Assembly (NCBI RefSeq): GCF_050920415.1
Contig: NZ_CP169309.1
Direction: 5' to 3' (one strand)
Source of the DNA: Escherichia coli
Lineage (GTDB): Bacteria > Pseudomonadota > Gammaproteobacteria > Enterobacterales > Enterobacteriaceae
DNA length: 64,000 nucleotides
The translations under genes and the position numbers were made by a program. The notes beneath the pieces were generated by a model. That model had not been told where the DNA came from. It searched no databases and worked only from the letters and a program-made list of their open reading frames with translations. How positions within the stretch are numbered: position 1 is the stretch's first letter; each line of letters begins with the position of its first letter. This document shows positions 30,621-50,785 of the stretch, piece by piece.

Positions 30621-32446
30621 GTGCGCCCAGCATGGGCGCGATCTTGGAGGTGAAAGTCCTCCCGCGAGCTGACCACAGCGAGCGAAAGGAAGTGCAACTG
30701 CGTGAGGGCGACCGGGCGTGGGGAGGAAGCACGGAATGAACCCGTGAGCCGATGAACAAGAATCGGATATGAGGCGCGATGGAGCAAGGCGAGCAGGCAC
30801 ATCACTGCGAAGCTTTCGTGGTCAAGTCGAAGTCGCGTAGATCCGGCGGTTGTGCGGGGAAGGATCGCGTTCTTACCTGGGGAGATCTCGCCTCATGCCT
30901 GAAAGGGCAACGTCGTAAGACGGAGCGAGAAGTCAGCAGAGGCCGTAGTAGTCAGGACTCCGACGAAGGGCCGAACGAGAAGGAAAGCCAGAAGATATGA
31001 CTCCTGACAGGACATTGCGTCAGAAGCCGGGGAAGCCCGGGCGCATCGTGGGCAGCGAGGGTGAAGCCCGCGCGGTCTCGTCGCGTGACGAAGCACTGTC
31101 GGCGAGTCATGACCCGGAAGGCTTGGGGCGAGCGGACCTGCTTCAACAGGTGCTCTCGCGCGAGAACATGGTCGAGGCGTGGAAACGCGTCAAGGCCAAC
31201 AAGGGAAGTGCAGGTGCTGATGGATTGACCATCGAGCAGACTGTTGAACACCTCAAGACTCGCTGGCCATACATTCGGGAAGCGCTTCTCAACGGGACAT
31301 ATCGGCCTCAGCCTGTGCGTCGCGTGGAGATTCCGAAACCGACTGGTGGCACTCGGGAATTGGGCATTCCGACAGTTACTGATAGGCTCATTCAGCAAGC
31401 GTTGCTACAAGTCCTGCAACCGTTGATCGACCCGACATTCTCGGAGTTCAGCTATGGCTTCCGGCCGGGCCGGAGCGCGCACGACGCAGTGCTACAAGCA
31501 CAGCGGTACGCGCAAGATGGATTCCGGGTGGTAGTTGATGTTGACCTTGAGAAATTCTTTGATCGGGTCAACCACGACATTCTGATGGACCGACTTGCCA
31601 GGCGAATCGCCGACAAAGCCGTACTACGGCTGATTCGGCGCTACCTGCAAGCTGGGATCATGGCGGATGGTGTGGTAATGGCGCGTGACGAGGGGACGCC
31701 GCAAGGCGGTCCACTGTCTCCGCTGTTGGCCAATGTGTTGTTGGACGAAGTAGATCGGGCGCTGCAACAGCGCGGTCATCGCTTCGCCCGGTACGCCGAC
31801 GACTGCAACGTGTACGTTCGCAGTCAGAAGGCGGGAGAACGAGTACTGCGTTGGATGCGCAAGATGTATGAGCAGTTGCATCTGCGCGTGAACGAGAAGA
31901 AAACCGAAGTGGGTCCGGTATTCGGGCGTAAGTTTCTCGGCTATTGCCTTCGGCGCTGGTCAGGAAACACCGTCAAGATTGCTGTTGCTCCGAAGGCGCT
32001 CGACACGTTCAAACGGCGTATCCGGCTCATCACCAGACGCGTTGGAGGCCAGGGCATAACCCAGATTGCCGAACAGATGCGGATATACCTTCGAGGCTGG
32101 AAGTCCTACTTCCGGCTGGCACAAACCCCGAAGATATTCAAAGATCTGGATTCGTGGATACGTCACCGACTCCGGGCTATCCAGCTGAAGCACTGGCGCA
32201 CGGGAACGACTGTCTATAATCGCCTCCGCAGTCTCGGGGCTACCCATGAGCAGGCCGCACTTATGGCAGGAGGCGCGGGGCACTGGTGGAGACACAGCGA
32301 AGCTGGGCTGAACCGTATACTTACAGTCGACTACTTTGATGCTTTAGGTTTACCTCGACTCGCATAACCTCAACTTCTCGAACCGCCCGGTGCGGACCCG
32401 CATGCCGGGTGGTGTGGCAGGGGCGCCGCCTTGTGCTGCCCCCTAT
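30621..32446 (+). mobile_element. group II intron (bacterial class C-like) with internal RT/maturase ORF
   Basis: Begins GTGCG; GC-rich structured 5' region; IEP ORF in the domain IV position; downstream 30-nt hairpin with 2-nt bulge (about 32383..32412) as domain V; ends ...CCCTAT. Confidence 0.7.
30997..32367 (+). CDS. group II intron-encoded reverse transcriptase/maturase, no endonuclease domain evident
   Basis: 456 aa; RT motifs (RRVEIPKPTGGTRELGIP, FRPGRSAHDA, YADDCNVYV) and C-terminal maturase-like region. Confidence 0.9.
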   Translation: MTPDRTLRQKPGKPGRIVGSEGEARAVSSRDEALSASHDPEGLGRADLLQQVLSRENMVEAWKRVKANKGSAGADGLTIEQTVEHLKTRWPYIREALLNGTYRPQPVRRVEIPKPTGGTRELGIPTVTDRLIQQALLQVLQPLIDPTFSEFSYGFRPGRSAHDAVLQAQRYAQDGFRVVVDVDLEKFFDRVNHDILMDRLARRIADKAVLRLIRRYLQAGIMADGVVMARDEGTPQGGPLSPLLANVLLDEVDRALQQRGHRFARYADDCNVYVRSQKAGERVLRWMRKMYEQLHLRVNEKKTEVGPVFGRKFLGYCLRRWSGNTVKIAVAPKALDTFKRRIRLITRRVGGQGITQIAEQMRIYLRGWKSYFRLAQTPKIFKDLDSWIRHRLRAIQLKHWRTGTTVYNRLRSLGATHEQAALMAGGAGHWWRHSEAGLNRILTVDYFDALGLPRLA

Positions 32447-33465: not shown

Positions 33466-34667
33466 GCGATCTCCTTAGCTGTCTGCGGTGCCGCATGGCG
33501 GAAGAAGCGTTTTTCCCAGCCGATAATCAACATCAGCGCAGCAAACAGCAGCAAATATGTCACCAGCAGGCCACCCATCGGGCCAAAGGTTTTCAGGAGG
33601 TTGATTTTGTCCCAGTCGGTGGCCAGCGCCGGAGCGAAATCATCCCAGTAATACGCCAGAATCGTTGAGCCGATCACATTGCCCAGACCGACCCACCAGT
33701 AGTGCACCTGGCCTTCTACCGCGCGGTACATCCAGCCGGTTTCGCAGCCGCCTGCCAGCACGATGCCAAATCCAAACAGCAAACCACCAATTACCGCGTT
33801 TGGTCCTGCCCACATGATTTTGGGTTCAACGCCTAACTGTACGTAACTTAAGATCCCGATGGCACTTACCGCCATACCGATAATGATTGCTTTCGCCATG
33901 TGGGTACGTCCGGTGATCCACATATCGCGGAACGCCGAAGTAAAGCAGATTTGCGCACGTTCAATCAGTAAACCAAAGCCGACGCCAAACAGCATTGCCA
34001 GCCCCAGTTTTGGTTGGTTCATCGCCGTCAGCAGCGCCCAGCCCAGCATGCCGAAAAAGACCAGCATCCCGAGACGAAAACGACGCCGCGCCTGATCCGG
34101 TTTTTGCGTCAGCGGTGAGGCGGCAGAAACTTTCTGCATTTTCACGGGAATACGGAAGATGGGCAGCAGGGTAAAGCGCGCGCCAAACCATGAACCAATG
34201 GCAGTGGCGATGGCAAAGAACCAGGCATGCAGCGAGAACTGAGGAATGCCGGTAAAGAACGCCGCCAGGTTACAGCCCATTGCCAGACGCGCGCCAAAAC
34301 CGGCGATAATGCCGCCAATGATGGCCTGCATAATGCGGATACGGCTGCGCGGCATGCGCAGTTTGACATTGTTGGCCCACAGCGCTGCAGCAAAGCAGCC
34401 GCCAAACATACCGAGGATCATCATTCCGTCGATGCGGGTTAATGGCGATCCTTCCAGATGAATAATTTTAAAATAACCCCACTCTTCAGCATGGACGCCA
34501 AACAGCTGCAAAAGCTGACCGCCCCAACGGGTAAATTCACCCGTGACTGCCCAAAAGGTGCCAGTGATGCCAAAATAGTAAGTGGAGAGAATACCCGCCG
34601 CGATGACCGCGGGGATGGGCGCCCAGAATTTAATCAACCAGGCGTGTTTGAATTGCTGCCATGACAT
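33462..34667 (-). CDS. yedE: YedE/YeeE-family membrane transporter
   Basis: 401 aa polytopic membrane protein; overlaps yedF stop. Confidence 0.85.
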   Translation of the reverse strand: MSWQQFKHAWLIKFWAPIPAVIAAGILSTYYFGITGTFWAVTGEFTRWGGQLLQLFGVHAEEWGYFKIIHLEGSPLTRIDGMMILGMFGGCFAAALWANNVKLRMPRSRIRIMQAIIGGIIAGFGARLAMGCNLAAFFTGIPQFSLHAWFFAIATAIGSWFGARFTLLPIFRIPVKMQKVSAASPLTQKPDQARRRFRLGMLVFFGMLGWALLTAMNQPKLGLAMLFGVGFGLLIERAQICFTSAFRDMWITGRTHMAKAIIIGMAVSAIGILSYVQLGVEPKIMWAGPNAVIGGLLFGFGIVLAGGCETGWMYRAVEGQVHYWWVGLGNVIGSTILAYYWDDFAPALATDWDKINLLKTFGPMGGLLVTYLLLFAALMLIIGWEKRFFRHAAPQTAKEIA

Positions 34668-37641: not shown

Positions 37642-37656
37642 AGTTTCTCCTGAAGA

Positions 37657-39072
37657 TTATTTCGAGTTGCTATTTGAGGTGTCGAACTGCTGTGTCAGAT
37701 AGCTACTGGTGGAGTTAAGCGAGTTCATTAACACATCTAATTGGGTGAACTGGGCTTTATAGCGCGTCATTAAGGTATCGATACGCTCACTGGCTGCGTT
37801 GTACTGGTCGGTCAAATTATTCAGCGTTTTGCTGACGCCATCTTTTGCGGCCTGGATTATCCCGGTGGAAGAGAGCCAACTGGTTAGGTTGCTACTAATG
37901 CCGGTGGTTACCCCTGTACTTTTACCGTCACCTATAAACATTTCACCGATGCCAGTGGCATCTTTTTTTAGCGCCGTTTGCAGTTTGTCGGTCGCGATTT
38001 CCAGCTTGCCGGTACTGGCATCGCTGGTAATGCCAATCTGTGCCAGCGTTTTATAGTTTGAACTGCTGTGAGTATTGGCGAGCAAGGTTTTAAGCTGAGT
38101 CTGGATGGTACGCAGTGTGGAGTCACCGAGTAATGCGCCATTGCTGGAGTCCTGACTCTCTGCTCCGGCATCGACAGCGGTGTATTTGGTTAAGCTGCTG
38201 AACGTATCCTGCAATGAGTTATAGGCATCCACCCACGCTTTAACCGCATTTTCAGCTTTGGATGTGTCTTTACTGATGGTCAGTGTCTGATTACCGGTGG
38301 TGACGTCATTCAGGTTGAGGGTGATATCTTCCAGCGCGTCGCTGATAGTGTTACTACTGTTTTCAATCTCAACGTTATTGACTGTCAGTTTGGCGTTTTG
38401 CGCAGTGACGCTTTCAATCATGCCATTGCTGCTATCACCCGACGTTCCGTTGTAACCCATAAAACTTTCCAGGGCGCTGTCGCCGCTGACGCTAAGATTC
38501 ATAGCGTTATCGCTGCCCGTATCGTTAGCGGTGATGGACAGACGATATTCGCCGTTTCCCACATTGATGATACTGGCGCTGACACCAGCTTTGGCGTTGT
38601 TAATGGCATCGCGAATGCCGGAAAGTGACGAGTTACCCGCGCTGATATCAATCGTGACCGGATCTTTACCGCCGCCTTGTTGGATGGTCAGTACGCTATC
38701 GCTGGTGGCGATGGCGGCTTTACTGTCTTTTTGACTATTTTTTGTTGTCAGCGTCTGTGCCTGCGCCAGTTGGCTAACGCTAATGGTGTATTTCCCGGCA
38801 ATCGCGCTGCCCGTGGTGGTGGCGCTGAAAGCCGATGAACTGCTGGTGGTTGAGGTGGCGGTAAATAAATCGGCTTTATTCAGTGCTGTGTTGGCTGTCT
38901 GGAAACTCTCTAGTGCACTTTTCAGCGTCCCGTAGGCGCTCAGTTTCGCGGTGTAAGAGCTTTGCTGTTTTGATATCGGCGTCAGGGTAGATTTTTCTGC
39001 CGCCTCCAGACTGTCAAGGATGCTGCTTAAGTCCAGCCCCGACCCAACCCCAAGCGTTGAAATACTAGCCAT
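37657..39072 (-). CDS. fliD: flagellar filament cap protein FliD
   Basis: 471 aa, MASISTLGVGSGLDLSSILDSL... Confidence 0.9.
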   Translation of the reverse strand: MASISTLGVGSGLDLSSILDSLEAAEKSTLTPISKQQSSYTAKLSAYGTLKSALESFQTANTALNKADLFTATSTTSSSSAFSATTTGSAIAGKYTISVSQLAQAQTLTTKNSQKDSKAAIATSDSVLTIQQGGGKDPVTIDISAGNSSLSGIRDAINNAKAGVSASIINVGNGEYRLSITANDTGSDNAMNLSVSGDSALESFMGYNGTSGDSSNGMIESVTAQNAKLTVNNVEIENSSNTISDALEDITLNLNDVTTGNQTLTISKDTSKAENAVKAWVDAYNSLQDTFSSLTKYTAVDAGAESQDSSNGALLGDSTLRTIQTQLKTLLANTHSSSNYKTLAQIGITSDASTGKLEIATDKLQTALKKDATGIGEMFIGDGKSTGVTTGISSNLTSWLSSTGIIQAAKDGVSKTLNNLTDQYNAASERIDTLMTRYKAQFTQLDVLMNSLNSTSSYLTQQFDTSNSNSK

Positions 39073-39114
39073 ATAAATTCCTTAATCATGCGACGTATAG
39101 AACGAATACCGGGG

Positions 39115-39141
39115 TTATCGGCGTAAGCGGGGCAAAGTTTA
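39115..39141 (-). promoter_or_regulatory. sigma-28 (FliA) class 3 promoter candidate for fliDST
   Basis: On the minus strand TAAACTTT-N11-GCCGATAA. Confidence 0.55.
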
Positions 39142-39214
39142 CGATTTATTTTTTGGCTTAATGACACGAACAGCAACGAGGAAGGGGAGTATTTCGACCG
39201 CTAGAAAAAAATTC

Positions 39215-39241
39215 TAAAGGTTGTGAGTGACCAGACGATAA
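39215..39241 (+). promoter_or_regulatory. sigma-28 (FliA) class 3 promoter candidate for fliC
   Basis: TAAAGGTT-N11-GACGATAA about 75 bp upstream of the fliC start. Confidence 0.6.
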
Positions 39242-39317
39242 CAGGGTTGACGGCGACGAAGCCGAAGGGTGGAAGCCCAATACTTAAACCGTAGACTTGA
39301 AAACAGGAAAATGAATC

Positions 39318-40649
39318 ATGGCACAAGTCATTAATACCAACAGCCTCTCGCTGATCACTCAGAACAACATCAACAAAAACCAGTCTGCGCTGTCGACTTC
39401 TATCGAGCGCCTCTCTTCTGGTCTGCGCATTAACAGCGCTAAAGATGACGCTGCGGGCCAGGCGATTGCTAACCGCTTCACTTCTAACATCAAAGGTCTG
39501 ACTCAGGCCGCACGTAACGCCAACGACGGTATCTCTCTGGCGCAGACCACTGAAGGCGCACTGTCTGAAATCAACAACAACTTGCAGCGTGTTCGTGAAC
39601 TGACCGTTCAGGCCACTACCGGTACTAACTCTGATTCTGACCTATCTTCAATCCAGGACGAAATCAAATCCCGTCTCGATGAAATTGACCGCGTATCCGG
39701 TCAGACTCAGTTCAACGGCGTTAATGTTCTTTCCAAAGATGGTTCAATGAAAATTCAGGTTGGTGCGAATGATGGTCAAACTATCTCCATCGATCTGAAG
39801 AAAATTGATTCTTCAACTTTGGGGCTGAATGGCTTCTCAGTTTCTAAAAACTCTCTTAATGTCAGCAATGCTATCACATCTATCCCGCAAGACGCTGGCG
39901 ATAAACCTGTTGATGTTAACTTTGGTACTACTACTGAGTCTGCAGCAATTGCAGCTAAATTGGGTGTATCCGATACGTCAAGCCTGTCGCTGCACAACAT
40001 TCTTGATAAAGATGGTAAGGCAACAGCTGATTATGTTGTTCAGTCAGGTAAAGACTTCTATGCTGCTTCTGTTGATGCCGCTTCAGGTAAAGTAACCTTA
40101 AACACCATTAATGTTACTTATGATGATTATGCGAACGGTGTTGACGATGCCAAGCAAACAGGTCAGCTGATCAAAGTTTCAGCAGATAAAGACGGCGCAG
40201 CTCAAGGTTTCGTCACACTTCAAGGCAAAAACTATTCTGCTGGTGATGCGGCAGTCATTCTTAAGAATGGAGCAACAAGTCTTGAGTTAACTGATCTGAA
40301 TTTAAGTGATGTTACTGATACTAATGGTAAGGTAACCACAACTGCGACTGAGCAATTTGAAGGTGCTTCAACTGAGGATCCGCTGGCGCTTCTGGATAAA
40401 GCTATTGCATCAGTCGACAAATTCCGGTCTTCTCTAGGTGCCGTGCAGAACCGTCTCGATTCCGCTATCACCAACCTGAACAACACCACCACCAACCTGT
40501 CTGAAGCGCAGTCCCGTATTCAGGACGCCGACTATGCGACCGAAGTGTCCAACATGTCGAAAGCGCAGATTATTCAGCAGGCAGGCAACTCCGTGCTGTC
40601 TAAAGCGAACCAGGTACCGCAGCAAGTTCTGTCACTGTTACAAGGCTAA
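39318..40649 (+). CDS. fliC: flagellin FliC
   Basis: 443 aa; conserved N-terminus MAQVINTNSLSLITQNNINKNQSALS and C-terminus ...QVPQQVLSLLQG with a variable central region. Confidence 0.95.
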   Translation: MAQVINTNSLSLITQNNINKNQSALSTSIERLSSGLRINSAKDDAAGQAIANRFTSNIKGLTQAARNANDGISLAQTTEGALSEINNNLQRVRELTVQATTGTNSDSDLSSIQDEIKSRLDEIDRVSGQTQFNGVNVLSKDGSMKIQVGANDGQTISIDLKKIDSSTLGLNGFSVSKNSLNVSNAITSIPQDAGDKPVDVNFGTTTESAAIAAKLGVSDTSSLSLHNILDKDGKATADYVVQSGKDFYAASVDAASGKVTLNTINVTYDDYANGVDDAKQTGQLIKVSADKDGAAQGFVTLQGKNYSAGDAAVILKNGATSLELTDLNLSDVTDTNGKVTTTATEQFEGASTEDPLALLDKAIASVDKFRSSLGAVQNRLDSAITNLNNTTTNLSEAQSRIQDADYATEVSNMSKAQIIQQAGNSVLSKANQVPQQVLSLLQG

Positions 40650-40666
40650 TGGCCTTAACCTGCCTG

Positions 40667-40692
40667 ACCCCGCCACCGGCGGGGTTTTTTCT
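40667..40692 (+). terminator. Rho-independent terminator of fliC
   Basis: CCCCGCC-ACCG-GCGGGG hairpin followed by TTTTTT. Confidence 0.7.
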
Positions 40693-40812
40693 GTCCGCAA
40701 TTTACTGGTAACCCCCAAATAACCCCTCATTTCACCCACTAATCGTCCGATTAAAAACCCTGCAGAAACGGATAATCATGCCGATAACTCATATAACGCA
40801 GGGCTGTTTATC

Positions 40813-41532
40813 GTGAATTCACTCTATACCGCTGAAGGTGTAATGGATAAACACTCGCTGTGGCAGCGTTATGTCCCGCTGGTGCGTCACGAAGCATTGC
40901 GCCTGCAGGTTCGACTGCCCGCGAGCGTGGAACTTGACGATCTGCTACAGGCGGGCGGCATTGGGTTACTTAATGCCGTCGAACGCTATGACGCCCTACA
41001 AGGAACGGCATTTACAACTTACGCAGTGCAGCGTATCCGTGGCGCTATGCTGGATGAACTTCGCAGCCGTGACTGGGTGCCGCGCAGCGTGCGACGCAAC
41101 GCGCGTGAAGTGGCACAGGCAATAGGGCAACTGGAGCAGGAACTTGGCCGCAACGCCACGGAAACTGAGGTAGCGGAACGTTTAGGGATCGATATTGCCG
41201 ACTATCGCCAAATGTTGCTCGACACCAATAACAGCCAGCTCTTCTCCTACGATGAGTGGCGCGAAGAGCACGGCGATAGTATCGAACTGGTTACTGATGA
41301 TCATCAGCGAGAAAACCCGCTACAACAACTGCTGGACAGTAATCTGCGCCAGCGGGTGATGGAAGCTATCGAAACGTTGCCGGAGCGCGAAAAACTGGTA
41401 TTAACCCTCTATTACCAGGAAGAGCTGAATCTCAAAGAGATTGGTGCGGTGCTGGAGGTCGGGGAATCGCGGGTCAGTCAGTTACATAGTCAGGCCATTA
41501 AACGGTTACGCACTAAACTGGGTAAGTTATAA
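40813..41532 (+). CDS. fliA: flagellar sigma factor sigma-28 (FliA)
   Basis: 239 aa, GTG start. Confidence 0.95.
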   Translation: MNSLYTAEGVMDKHSLWQRYVPLVRHEALRLQVRLPASVELDDLLQAGGIGLLNAVERYDALQGTAFTTYAVQRIRGAMLDELRSRDWVPRSVRRNAREVAQAIGQLEQELGRNATETEVAERLGIDIADYRQMLLDTNNSQLFSYDEWREEHGDSIELVTDDHQRENPLQQLLDSNLRQRVMEAIETLPEREKLVLTLYYQEELNLKEIGAVLEVGESRVSQLHSQAIKRLRTKLGKL

Positions 41533-50483: not shown

Positions 50484-50559
<76 letters not shown>

Positions 50560-50612
50560 GTTTAAAAGACATCGGCTTCAGCGGATGTCCGGCTGAAAGG
50601 CCTGAAGAATTT

Positions 50613-50686
50613 GGCGCGTTAACAAAGCGGTTATGTAGCGGATTGCAAATCCGTCTAGTCCGGTTCGACTCCGGAACGCGCCTCCA
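50613..50686 (+). tRNA. cysT: tRNA-Cys (GCA)
   Basis: GGCGCGTTAACAAAGCGG...GATTGCAAATCC...GGTTCGACTCCGGAACGCGCCTCCA. Confidence 0.9.
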
Positions 50687-50698
50687 CTTTCTTCCCGA

Positions 50699-50785
50699 GC
50701 CCGGATGGTGGAATCGGTAGACACAAGGGATTTAAAATCCCTCGGCGTTCGCGCTGTGCGGGTTCAAGTCCCGCTCCGGGTACCA
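50699..50785 (+). tRNA. leuZ: tRNA-Leu (UAA)
   Basis: GCCCGGATGGTGGAATCGGTAGACACAAGGGATTTAAAATCCC...GGGTTCAAGTCCCGCTCCGGGTACCA with long variable arm. Confidence 0.9.

Follow-up and report, generated by a model that had tools for sequence, protein, structure and literature searches.

Are the two motifs that lie back to back between fliD and fliC in this stretch of Escherichia coli DNA the FliA (sigma-28) promoters of the two genes, and is the flagellin locus that they serve intact? We examined the whole stretch of 64,000 nucleotides (here called the window), which is E. coli chromosome; a 1-kb query taken from around the promoters was 100% identical to strain R32_14_1F. The genes are ordered amyA-fliT-fliS-fliD on the minus strand, followed by fliC-fliA-fliZ-tcyJ on the plus strand, in an orientation inverted relative to that of K-12. 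The fliD-fliC intergenic region measures 245 bp. We conclude that both motifs are almost certainly the known FliA promoters, driving fliDST and fliC divergently. Two back-to-back FliA promoters for fliD and fliC had been the core reading of a first-pass annotation of this DNA, and it is borne out by orthology to the sites that FliA binds in K-12. Both promoters have been well characterized already, and their presence and apparently functional sequence are the expected state. There is nothing new in the promoter finding as such, which was already known.

Promoter elements and gene content of the fliD-fliC locus

We located the motifs by direct reading and by a pattern search of both strands. 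Both had been reported exactly, to the base, and the interval first given for them, 39115-39241, corresponds to the span between the two -10 boxes. The fliD site, TAAACTTT-N11-GCCGATAA, is on the minus strand at 39141..39115 (in full, TAAACTTTGCCCCGCTTACGCCGATAA) and carries 1 mismatch to TAAAGTTT-N11-GCCGATAA. The fliC site, TAAAGGTT-N11-GACGATAA, occupies 39215..39241 on the plus strand (in full, TAAAGGTTGTGAGTGACCAGACGATAA) and carries 2 mismatches to the same pattern. Compared box by box, the -35 elements TAAACTTT and TAAAGGTT each match TAAAGTTT at 7/8 positions, the variant found at fliD being also that of K-12 motA. The -10 elements match GCCGATAA at 8/8 positions for fliD and at 7/8 for fliC (GACGATAA). 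Each promoter points into a flagellar gene and lies the right distance ahead of it. The A-tract GAAAAAAATTC before the fliC -35 box is a possible UP-element. The coordinates of these and other features are collected in Table 1.

Table 1. Features of the fliD-fliC locus and other FliA-matrix matches in the window
Feature	Position	Strand	Remarks
fliL promoter FliA motif	19303..19330	-	Rank 5; identical to the K-12 ChIP-seq motif
Orphan FliA-matrix match GGAAGAAGCGTTTTTCCCAGCCGATAAT	33500..33527	+	16.7 bits; good -10, no -35; antisense, inside the start of yedE
fliD CDS	37657..39072	-	471 aa; NCBIfam NF005955, 686 bits, residues 1-464 against profile 1-465/465
Predicted fliD class 3 start	39108	-	7th nt after GATAA; 5'UTR of ~36 nt, 39108..39073
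fliDST sigma-28 -10 box GCCGATAA(C)	39114..39122	-	Perfect consensus; K-12 has ACCGATAAC
fliDST promoter spacer GCCCCGCTTAC	39123..39133	-	11 nt in all alleles and genera; sequence free to vary
fliDST sigma-28 -35 box TAAACTTT	39134..39141	-	Same as in the K-12 fliDST FliA motif; invariant in 18 sequences from ~16 genera
Conserved block between the promoters, candidate FlhDC box	39160..39202	.	AATGA-CAC-GAACAGCA-N11-GAGTATTT-CGA-CCGCT
A-tract GAAAAAAATTC	39204..39214	+	Adjoins the fliC -35 box; nearly invariant in 18 sequences
fliC sigma-28 -35 box TAAAGGTT	39215..39222	+	Same as in the K-12 fliC FliA motif
fliC promoter spacer GTGAGTGACCA	39223..39233	+	11 nt; 7/11 bases unlike K-12 GTTTTACGACA
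fliC sigma-28 -10 box GACGATAA(C)	39234..39242	+	Same as in K-12; invariant in 18 sequences
fliC transcription start	39248	+	By orthology to the mapped K-12 start; 70-nt 5'UTR, 39248..39317
fliC CDS	39318..40649	+	443 aa, H25-type; NCBIfam NF005953 (635.8 bits) and NF005294 (510.7 bits), full length
fliA promoter FliA motif	40761..40788	+	Rank 2; identical to the K-12 ChIP-seq motif

The promoter motifs had also been taken to show that the flagellin locus is intact. The locus is indeed intact, but this follows from its reading frames and not from the motifs: each of FliC, FliD, FliS, FliT and FliA (5/5) has its full length and scores above the curated NCBIfam cut-offs from end to end. The fliD gene is annotated as such in the near-identical strain as well. 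The FliA protein of the window is the same as K-12 FliA at 239/239 residues, and the promoter specificity should therefore carry over from K-12. In FliC, the N and C termini are conserved and match those of K-12, and the middle of the protein is variable. Because this central region is 98.8% identical to that of the O165:H25 strains 2012C-4227 and 2013C-4830, we assign fliC as an H25-type allele. The H25-type flagellin of the window was found in 146 of 5,426 genomes, NCTC9088 among them. With the two promoters in place, a sigma factor identical to that of K-12 and unbroken target genes, the strain is genetically competent for an H25-type filament. The result has little weight beyond annotation, namely that the strain has the standard late-flagellar control region.

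We also searched the region for other features. No credible gene was seen among the small open reading frames of the intergenic region, none of which reaches 50 aa; they use TTG or GTG starts and overlap the promoters. An Rfam scan at the gathering score returned nothing in the fliD-fliC intergenic region, and no family was found in 38900..40900 even at E values of up to 1. A terminator-like hairpin at 39122..39143 on the plus strand, over the fliD promoter spacer, was put down to chance; the K-12 allele does not conserve it, and there is no plus-strand gene upstream of it.

Comparison with the mapped promoters of K-12

Both K-12 promoters have been studied experimentally. In a genome-wide analysis by ChIP-seq and RNA-seq, no FliA peak of K-12 was stronger than that of fliC (FAT 110, motif TAAAGGTTGTTTTACGACAGACGATAAC), which was also the most FliA-dependent gene, with expression falling from 2319 to 11 in a fliA deletion; the FliA ChIP-seq peak at fliDST had a FAT of 43 and the motif TAAACTTTGCGCAATTCAGACCGATAAC (PMC4183435). 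On the basis of transcription-initiation mapping, RegulonDB places the fliCp +1 at the T of cagggtTgacgg (NC_000913.2 position 2001700), 7 nt after GATAA and 70 nt ahead of the ATG (Fitzgerald 2014 Table S3). As cited in a bioRxiv preprint (10.1101/2020.01.02.893370), Kundu et al. 1997 transcribed, gel-shifted and footprinted K-12 fliCp with E-sigma-28 in vitro; the preprint adds assays of its own. For the fliD start, the RegulonDB fliDp1 entry (Fitzgerald 2014 Table S3) gives no coordinate, and a literature search found none. Applying the 7-nt rule from the mapped fliC start, we predict that the fliD class 3 start lies at about 39108.

The first-pass annotation had suggested mapped K-12 promoters as a standard of comparison, and by this standard the two sites correspond, as orthologues in the same position, to the fliDST and fliC promoters of K-12. 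The fliC promoter of the window shares with K-12 fliCp (RegulonDB ECK120009887) the -35 box TAAAGGTT, the -10 box GACGATAAC, the upstream A-tract and the cagggtTgacgg around +1. The 11-nt spacer, the 70-nt 5'UTR and the distance to the ATG are the same, too. The two alleles differ in 7 of the 11 spacer bases (GTGAGTGACCA in the window, GTTTTACGACA in K-12) and in parts of the 5'UTR, and 19 bp found further upstream in K-12 are absent from the window. On the fliD side, the promoter of the window and the K-12 fliDST FliA promoter (fliDp1) agree in the -35 box TAAACTTT, in the spacer length of 11 nt, in how they lie relative to the fliD ATG and in their divergence from fliC. Here the differences are a single base in the -10 box, GCCGATAA as opposed to ACCGATAA in K-12, and the sequence of the spacer. 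Consequently, the fliD boxes match those of K-12 at 15/16 aligned positions.

Conservation in E. coli and other Enterobacterales

In the 5,426 complete genomes of E. coli that were searched, two classes of the intergenic region were seen, with almost nothing between them. The window type (at least 95% identity) was found in 1,325 genomes and the K-12 type (near 70%) in about 3,187, and 913 gave no match. The window and K-12 alleles themselves are about 72% identical. We aligned three window-type and five K-12-type intergenic sequences. The three window-type sequences and, among the K-12-type ones, O157:H7, O127:H6 and O89m:H10 were identical at all 32 box positions. The exceptions in this alignment were K-12, with a private A in the fliD -10 box, and one strain in which the fliD side is replaced by IS1. 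The spacers differed at about half of their positions, and their length was always 11 nt. The K-12 fliD -10 box, ACCGATAA, is thus the outlier, since the window, O157:H7, O127:H6, the H10 strain and almost all other genera have GCCGATAA. The 61-mer of K-12 occurred exactly in only 360 of the 3,188 genomes with a K-12-type allele.

An interrupted locus was seen in E. coli 2015C-3121 (L006, locus 1..400), where an IS1A at the -35 box of the fliD promoter parts fliD from fliC and the fliC promoter is intact.

For the comparison across genera, one genome per species was searched. To avoid a bias on the promoter, the scan was seeded with the 20 nt that begin the flagellin coding sequence, and the DNA upstream was then scored. 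Fifty-five loci of other Enterobacterales had a divergent fliD. In these, the best sense FliA motif ended 65-93 nt before the flagellin ATG, and the best antisense motif was TAAACTTT-N11-GCCGATAAC or a close variant, starting 177-317 nt upstream of the flagellin ATG. In an alignment of 18 sequences, the four boxes stood out as nearly invariant islands. The Escherichia/Enterobacter/Kluyvera group retains TAAAGGTT...GACGATAAC at the flagellin promoter, its -35 box being invariant within the group. Salmonella and Citrobacter (L036, L074, L040 and L019) have the same back-to-back layout, the same distances and the fliD motif TAAACTTT-N11-GCCGATAAC, but their flagellin promoter is TAAAGTTC-N11-GCCGATACA instead of the TAAAGGTT-N11-GACGATAAC of the window. 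As read from these alignments, the back-to-back promoter architecture is conserved in several genera of the Enterobacterales. The case for the fliC site rests on its orthology and on the conservation of its boxes and 11-nt spacing, while the sequences of the spacers vary.

Proposed activation of the two promoters and probable dual control of fliDST

At both promoters, regions 2 and 3 of FliA would read the extended -10 box (GCCGATAA at fliD, GACGATAA at fliC) over the fixed 11-nt spacer, and transcription would begin about 7 nt downstream of the -10 box, for fliC at the position given by orthology and for fliD near the predicted one. Completion of the hook-basal body would lead to export of the anti-sigma factor FlgM, and the free FliA would then fire both promoters; this scheme is the established model. 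Flagellin (fliC) would in this manner be made together with the cap protein, its chaperones and the regulator (fliDST). With 73 bp between the -35 boxes and about 140 bp between the starts, there is room for two holoenzymes at once, and they need not compete. We infer that both promoters are active in the strain from which the window comes.

The inputs to the two transcription units are expected to differ. Expression of fliC would rely almost wholly on its sigma-28 promoter, and fliDST would have an FlhDC-activated sigma-70 class 2 promoter too, the sigma-28 promoter serving as a second, late input. The description of the locus as class 3 architecture is thus accurate for the FliA promoters but not in the sense of pure class 3 control, given that fliDST of K-12 is a dual class 2/3 operon. 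Expression of K-12 fliDST dropped from a wild-type value of 633 to 356 when fliA was deleted and to 3 when flhD or flhC was deleted (PMC4183435), and FlhDC has been shown at K-12 fliDST by ChIP-qPCR. Because deletion of fliA lowers K-12 fliD only about 1.8-fold, the sigma-28 promoter of K-12 fliD contributes little under standard conditions.

These data favor, with reasonable probability, the view that the fliD motif is a genuine FliA site with a secondary role. Most fliDST mRNA would then come from the FlhDC-activated sigma-70 class 2 promoter, and the sigma-28 promoter would become important only at a late stage, as in swarming or the repair of filaments. Such a division of labor would refine our main explanation and not replace it. 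In line with this view, Fitzgerald 2014 attributes most transcription of the dual-regulated genes, under the conditions of that study, to the FlhDC-dependent promoters. The Salmonella work cited there proposes that the class 3 fliDST promoter is needed for swarming and filament repair, and PMC10597343 depicts EcoCyc-style sigma-70 elements at fliDSTp.

The sequence between the sigma-28 promoters may also point to a class 2 input. A block conserved across genera is found there, for which the 18-sequence alignment gives the form AATGG-N3-GAATAA(C)G-N11-GAGTATTT. The window copy is more degenerate than that of K-12 and of most genera. With a geometry that resembles the FlhDC consensus reportedly defined by Stafford et al. 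2005, the block is a likely candidate for the site at which FlhDC activates class 2 transcription of fliD. The published FlhDC motif is itself weak and degenerate.

Three observations run the other way. A scan of the intergenic region with the sigma-70 consensus revealed no promoter-like site; this is a weak point, as activator-dependent class 2 promoters are expected to score poorly. The -10 box of the window is a perfect GCCGATAA, unlike the ACCGATAA of K-12, and the sigma-28 promoter of the window could thus be stronger than its K-12 counterpart. Finally, the candidate FlhDC box is more degenerate in the window allele.

The fliD-fliC region as a divergent cassette

When the window was compared with K-12, fliD, the promoters and fliC appeared as a sharply bounded divergent cassette of about 3 kb (37650..40700). 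Identity to K-12 is 50-90% inside the cassette and 96-100% in the flanking fliS/fliT and fliA/fliZ genes, with edges at the fliS/fliD junction (~37650) and at the fliC terminator (~40700). The FliD protein of the window is 80% identical to K-12 FliD and 89-90% identical to the FliD of Pseudocitrobacter. The intergenic region behaves likewise, with 86% identity to Pseudocitrobacter compared to the 72% to K-12. The abrupt drop in identity and the affinity to Pseudocitrobacter indicate that the promoters travel inside an exchangeable fliD-fliC cassette.

Two length differences lie within this segment. At 39203/39204 there is a 19-bp indel, where K-12 has an extra ACAAAAAATGGCTGTTTTT between the central block and the fliC A-tract, and the promoters are 19 bp closer to each other in the window. 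The short form is common to the window-type E. coli sequences aligned (3/3) and Pseudocitrobacter. The spacer between fliC and fliA (40650..40812) is 163 nt long, compared to 320 nt in K-12. The absent ~157 nt hold the body of FliX, a sigma-28-dependent small RNA, with its two REP sequences, and only the terminator hairpin at 40666..40686 is shared. On this evidence, the K-12-type FliX, which represses fliC mRNA in K-12, is probably not made from the fliC allele of the window.

These differences raise the alternative that the promoters are the known ones but that the window allele is regulated differently in quantity from that of K-12. The candidate causes are the 19-bp deletion, the G in the fliD -10 box, the different fliC spacer and the 3'UTR without the FliX body. 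The 19-bp indel draws both promoters and the candidate FlhDC box closer together; G in place of A at the first base of the fliD -10 box raises the matrix score from 19.0 to 22.4 bits; and a repressor of fliC mRNA in K-12 is affected by the loss of the ~157 nt with the FliX REP sequences. We nevertheless regard a quantitative difference as unlikely. The short form also occurs in Pseudocitrobacter and, as part of the H25-type window allele, in about 29% of the E. coli genomes with the locus, and normal function is therefore clearly possible with it. Moreover, the G form of the fliD -10 box is the common one. It is similarly doubtful that the promoters are part of a cassette whose lateral exchange alters flagellar regulation between E. 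coli lineages. If this were true, either through a shifted FlhDC/FliA balance at fliD or through the post-transcriptional feedback on fliC, lineages would differ in regulation in addition to their H antigen.

Matrix scores of the FliA sites

The window was also scanned for the consensus and with weight matrices. Matches to TAAAGTTT-N11-GCCGATAA with at most 3 mismatches numbered 3, compared to 0.54 +/- 0.78 expected per shuffled window. The third match, at 27450, has 3 mismatches and is weak. A FliA matrix was then built from 50 K-12 ChIP-seq sites (Fitzgerald 2014 Table 2; PMC4183435), from which fliC and fliD were excluded to avoid circularity. We used it in two versions, one with all 28 columns and one in which the 11 spacer columns were set to zero (motif-only), and scanned about 128,000 positions.

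With the motif-only matrix, the fliD site scored 22.39 bits and ranked first, a score that was reached in 0 of 200 random 64-kb sequences. The fliC site scored 16.87 bits and ranked third, with 0.165 such sites expected per random window. With the 28-column matrix, the fliD site again ranked first (20.45 bits), and the fliC site ranked ninth with 13.85 bits, below the mean random-window maximum of 15.0 +/- 2.0. We dropped the 28-column version in favor of the motif-only matrix; its spacer columns are nearly uninformative, and their noise pushed fliC below chance. The top five motif-only sites were, in order, those of fliD, fliA and fliC, an orphan site and that of fliL, so that 4/5 are known flagellar promoters. 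The orphan match is probably due to chance.

By matrix score alone, the fliD site is unambiguous and the fliC site is borderline. The matrix scan proposed in the first-pass annotation therefore supports its reading fully for fliD and only in part for fliC. The low score of fliC arises because A replaces C at the second -10 position (GA, not GC), which FliA matrices penalize. A score below threshold had been named as grounds for rejecting the promoters. This argument is invalid for fliC, since the K-12 fliC promoter, which is proven by experiment, does no better on the same matrices (16.9 bits motif-only and 12.8 bits with 28 columns), and a low matrix score thus does not refute the fliC site of the window. 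A matrix threshold alone would miss fliC, the strongest FliA promoter of E. coli, and orthology together with conservation are the sound tests. That one or both motifs might be chance look-alikes or decayed, non-functional copies, as the full-matrix fliC score and the many E. coli isolates that are non-motile from causes elsewhere in the regulon could suggest, is very improbable in view of the fliD score, the orthologous position, orientation and distance of both sites, boxes that stay invariant in E. coli and between genera where flanks and spacers diverge, the exact agreement of the fliC boxes and the near agreement of the fliD boxes with those of K-12, and the intact FliA and downstream reading frames.

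The fliC leader and a possible TldR target

In the leader of fliC (39251..39278), two short hairpins, CGGC/GCCG and GGGU-GGAA-(A/G)CCC, can be read by eye within the first 31 nt. Pairing was possible in 83% of cells, compared to 26-46% in shifted registers, and in two pairs both partners had changed in a compensatory way in other genera, from C-G to U-A and from U-A to C-G. This covariation lends the putative hairpins modest support. RNAalifold found no consensus structure on the whole fliC 5'UTR.

In Enterobacter, the host fliC promoter is a target of phage-encoded TldR RNA-guided repressors (PMC10705468). Read on the opposite strand, the ATAAC of the sigma-28 -10 box gives GTTAT, the TAM of TldR, and the fliC promoter of the window carries it on the minus strand at 39242..39238. 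Within the stretch 39222..39242 (minus strand), the 9 nt that adjoin the TAM, CGTCTGGTC, match the putative Enterobacter target, taken here from the opposite strand of the L039 fliC promoter. Over the putative target as a whole, 5 of 16 positions differ between the window and that Enterobacter sequence. The correspondence comes from reading the sequences. We detected no tldR and no second flagellin gene within the window. K-12 matches the putative Enterobacter target over only 6 nt, and off-target binding of TldR in K-12 has been observed by ChIP-seq.

Other features of the window

Rfam matches elsewhere in the window included DsrA, RseX and three tRNAs, at 13578..13664, 5153..5242 and 50484..50782, respectively. 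At about the same position, the annotation of strain R32_14_1F shows a tRNA Gly-Cys-Leu cluster. A group II intron was located at 30702..32367, with the Rfam domains D1-D4 at 30702..30971 and an open reading frame for a 456-aa reverse transcriptase/maturase at 30997..32367. The intron interrupts the insQ/TnpB gene of an IS200/IS605 element beside yedK. Of 5,426 genomes, only MFDS1022581, which matched a 3.5-kb query in full, had this intron/tnpB arrangement over at least 80% of the query.
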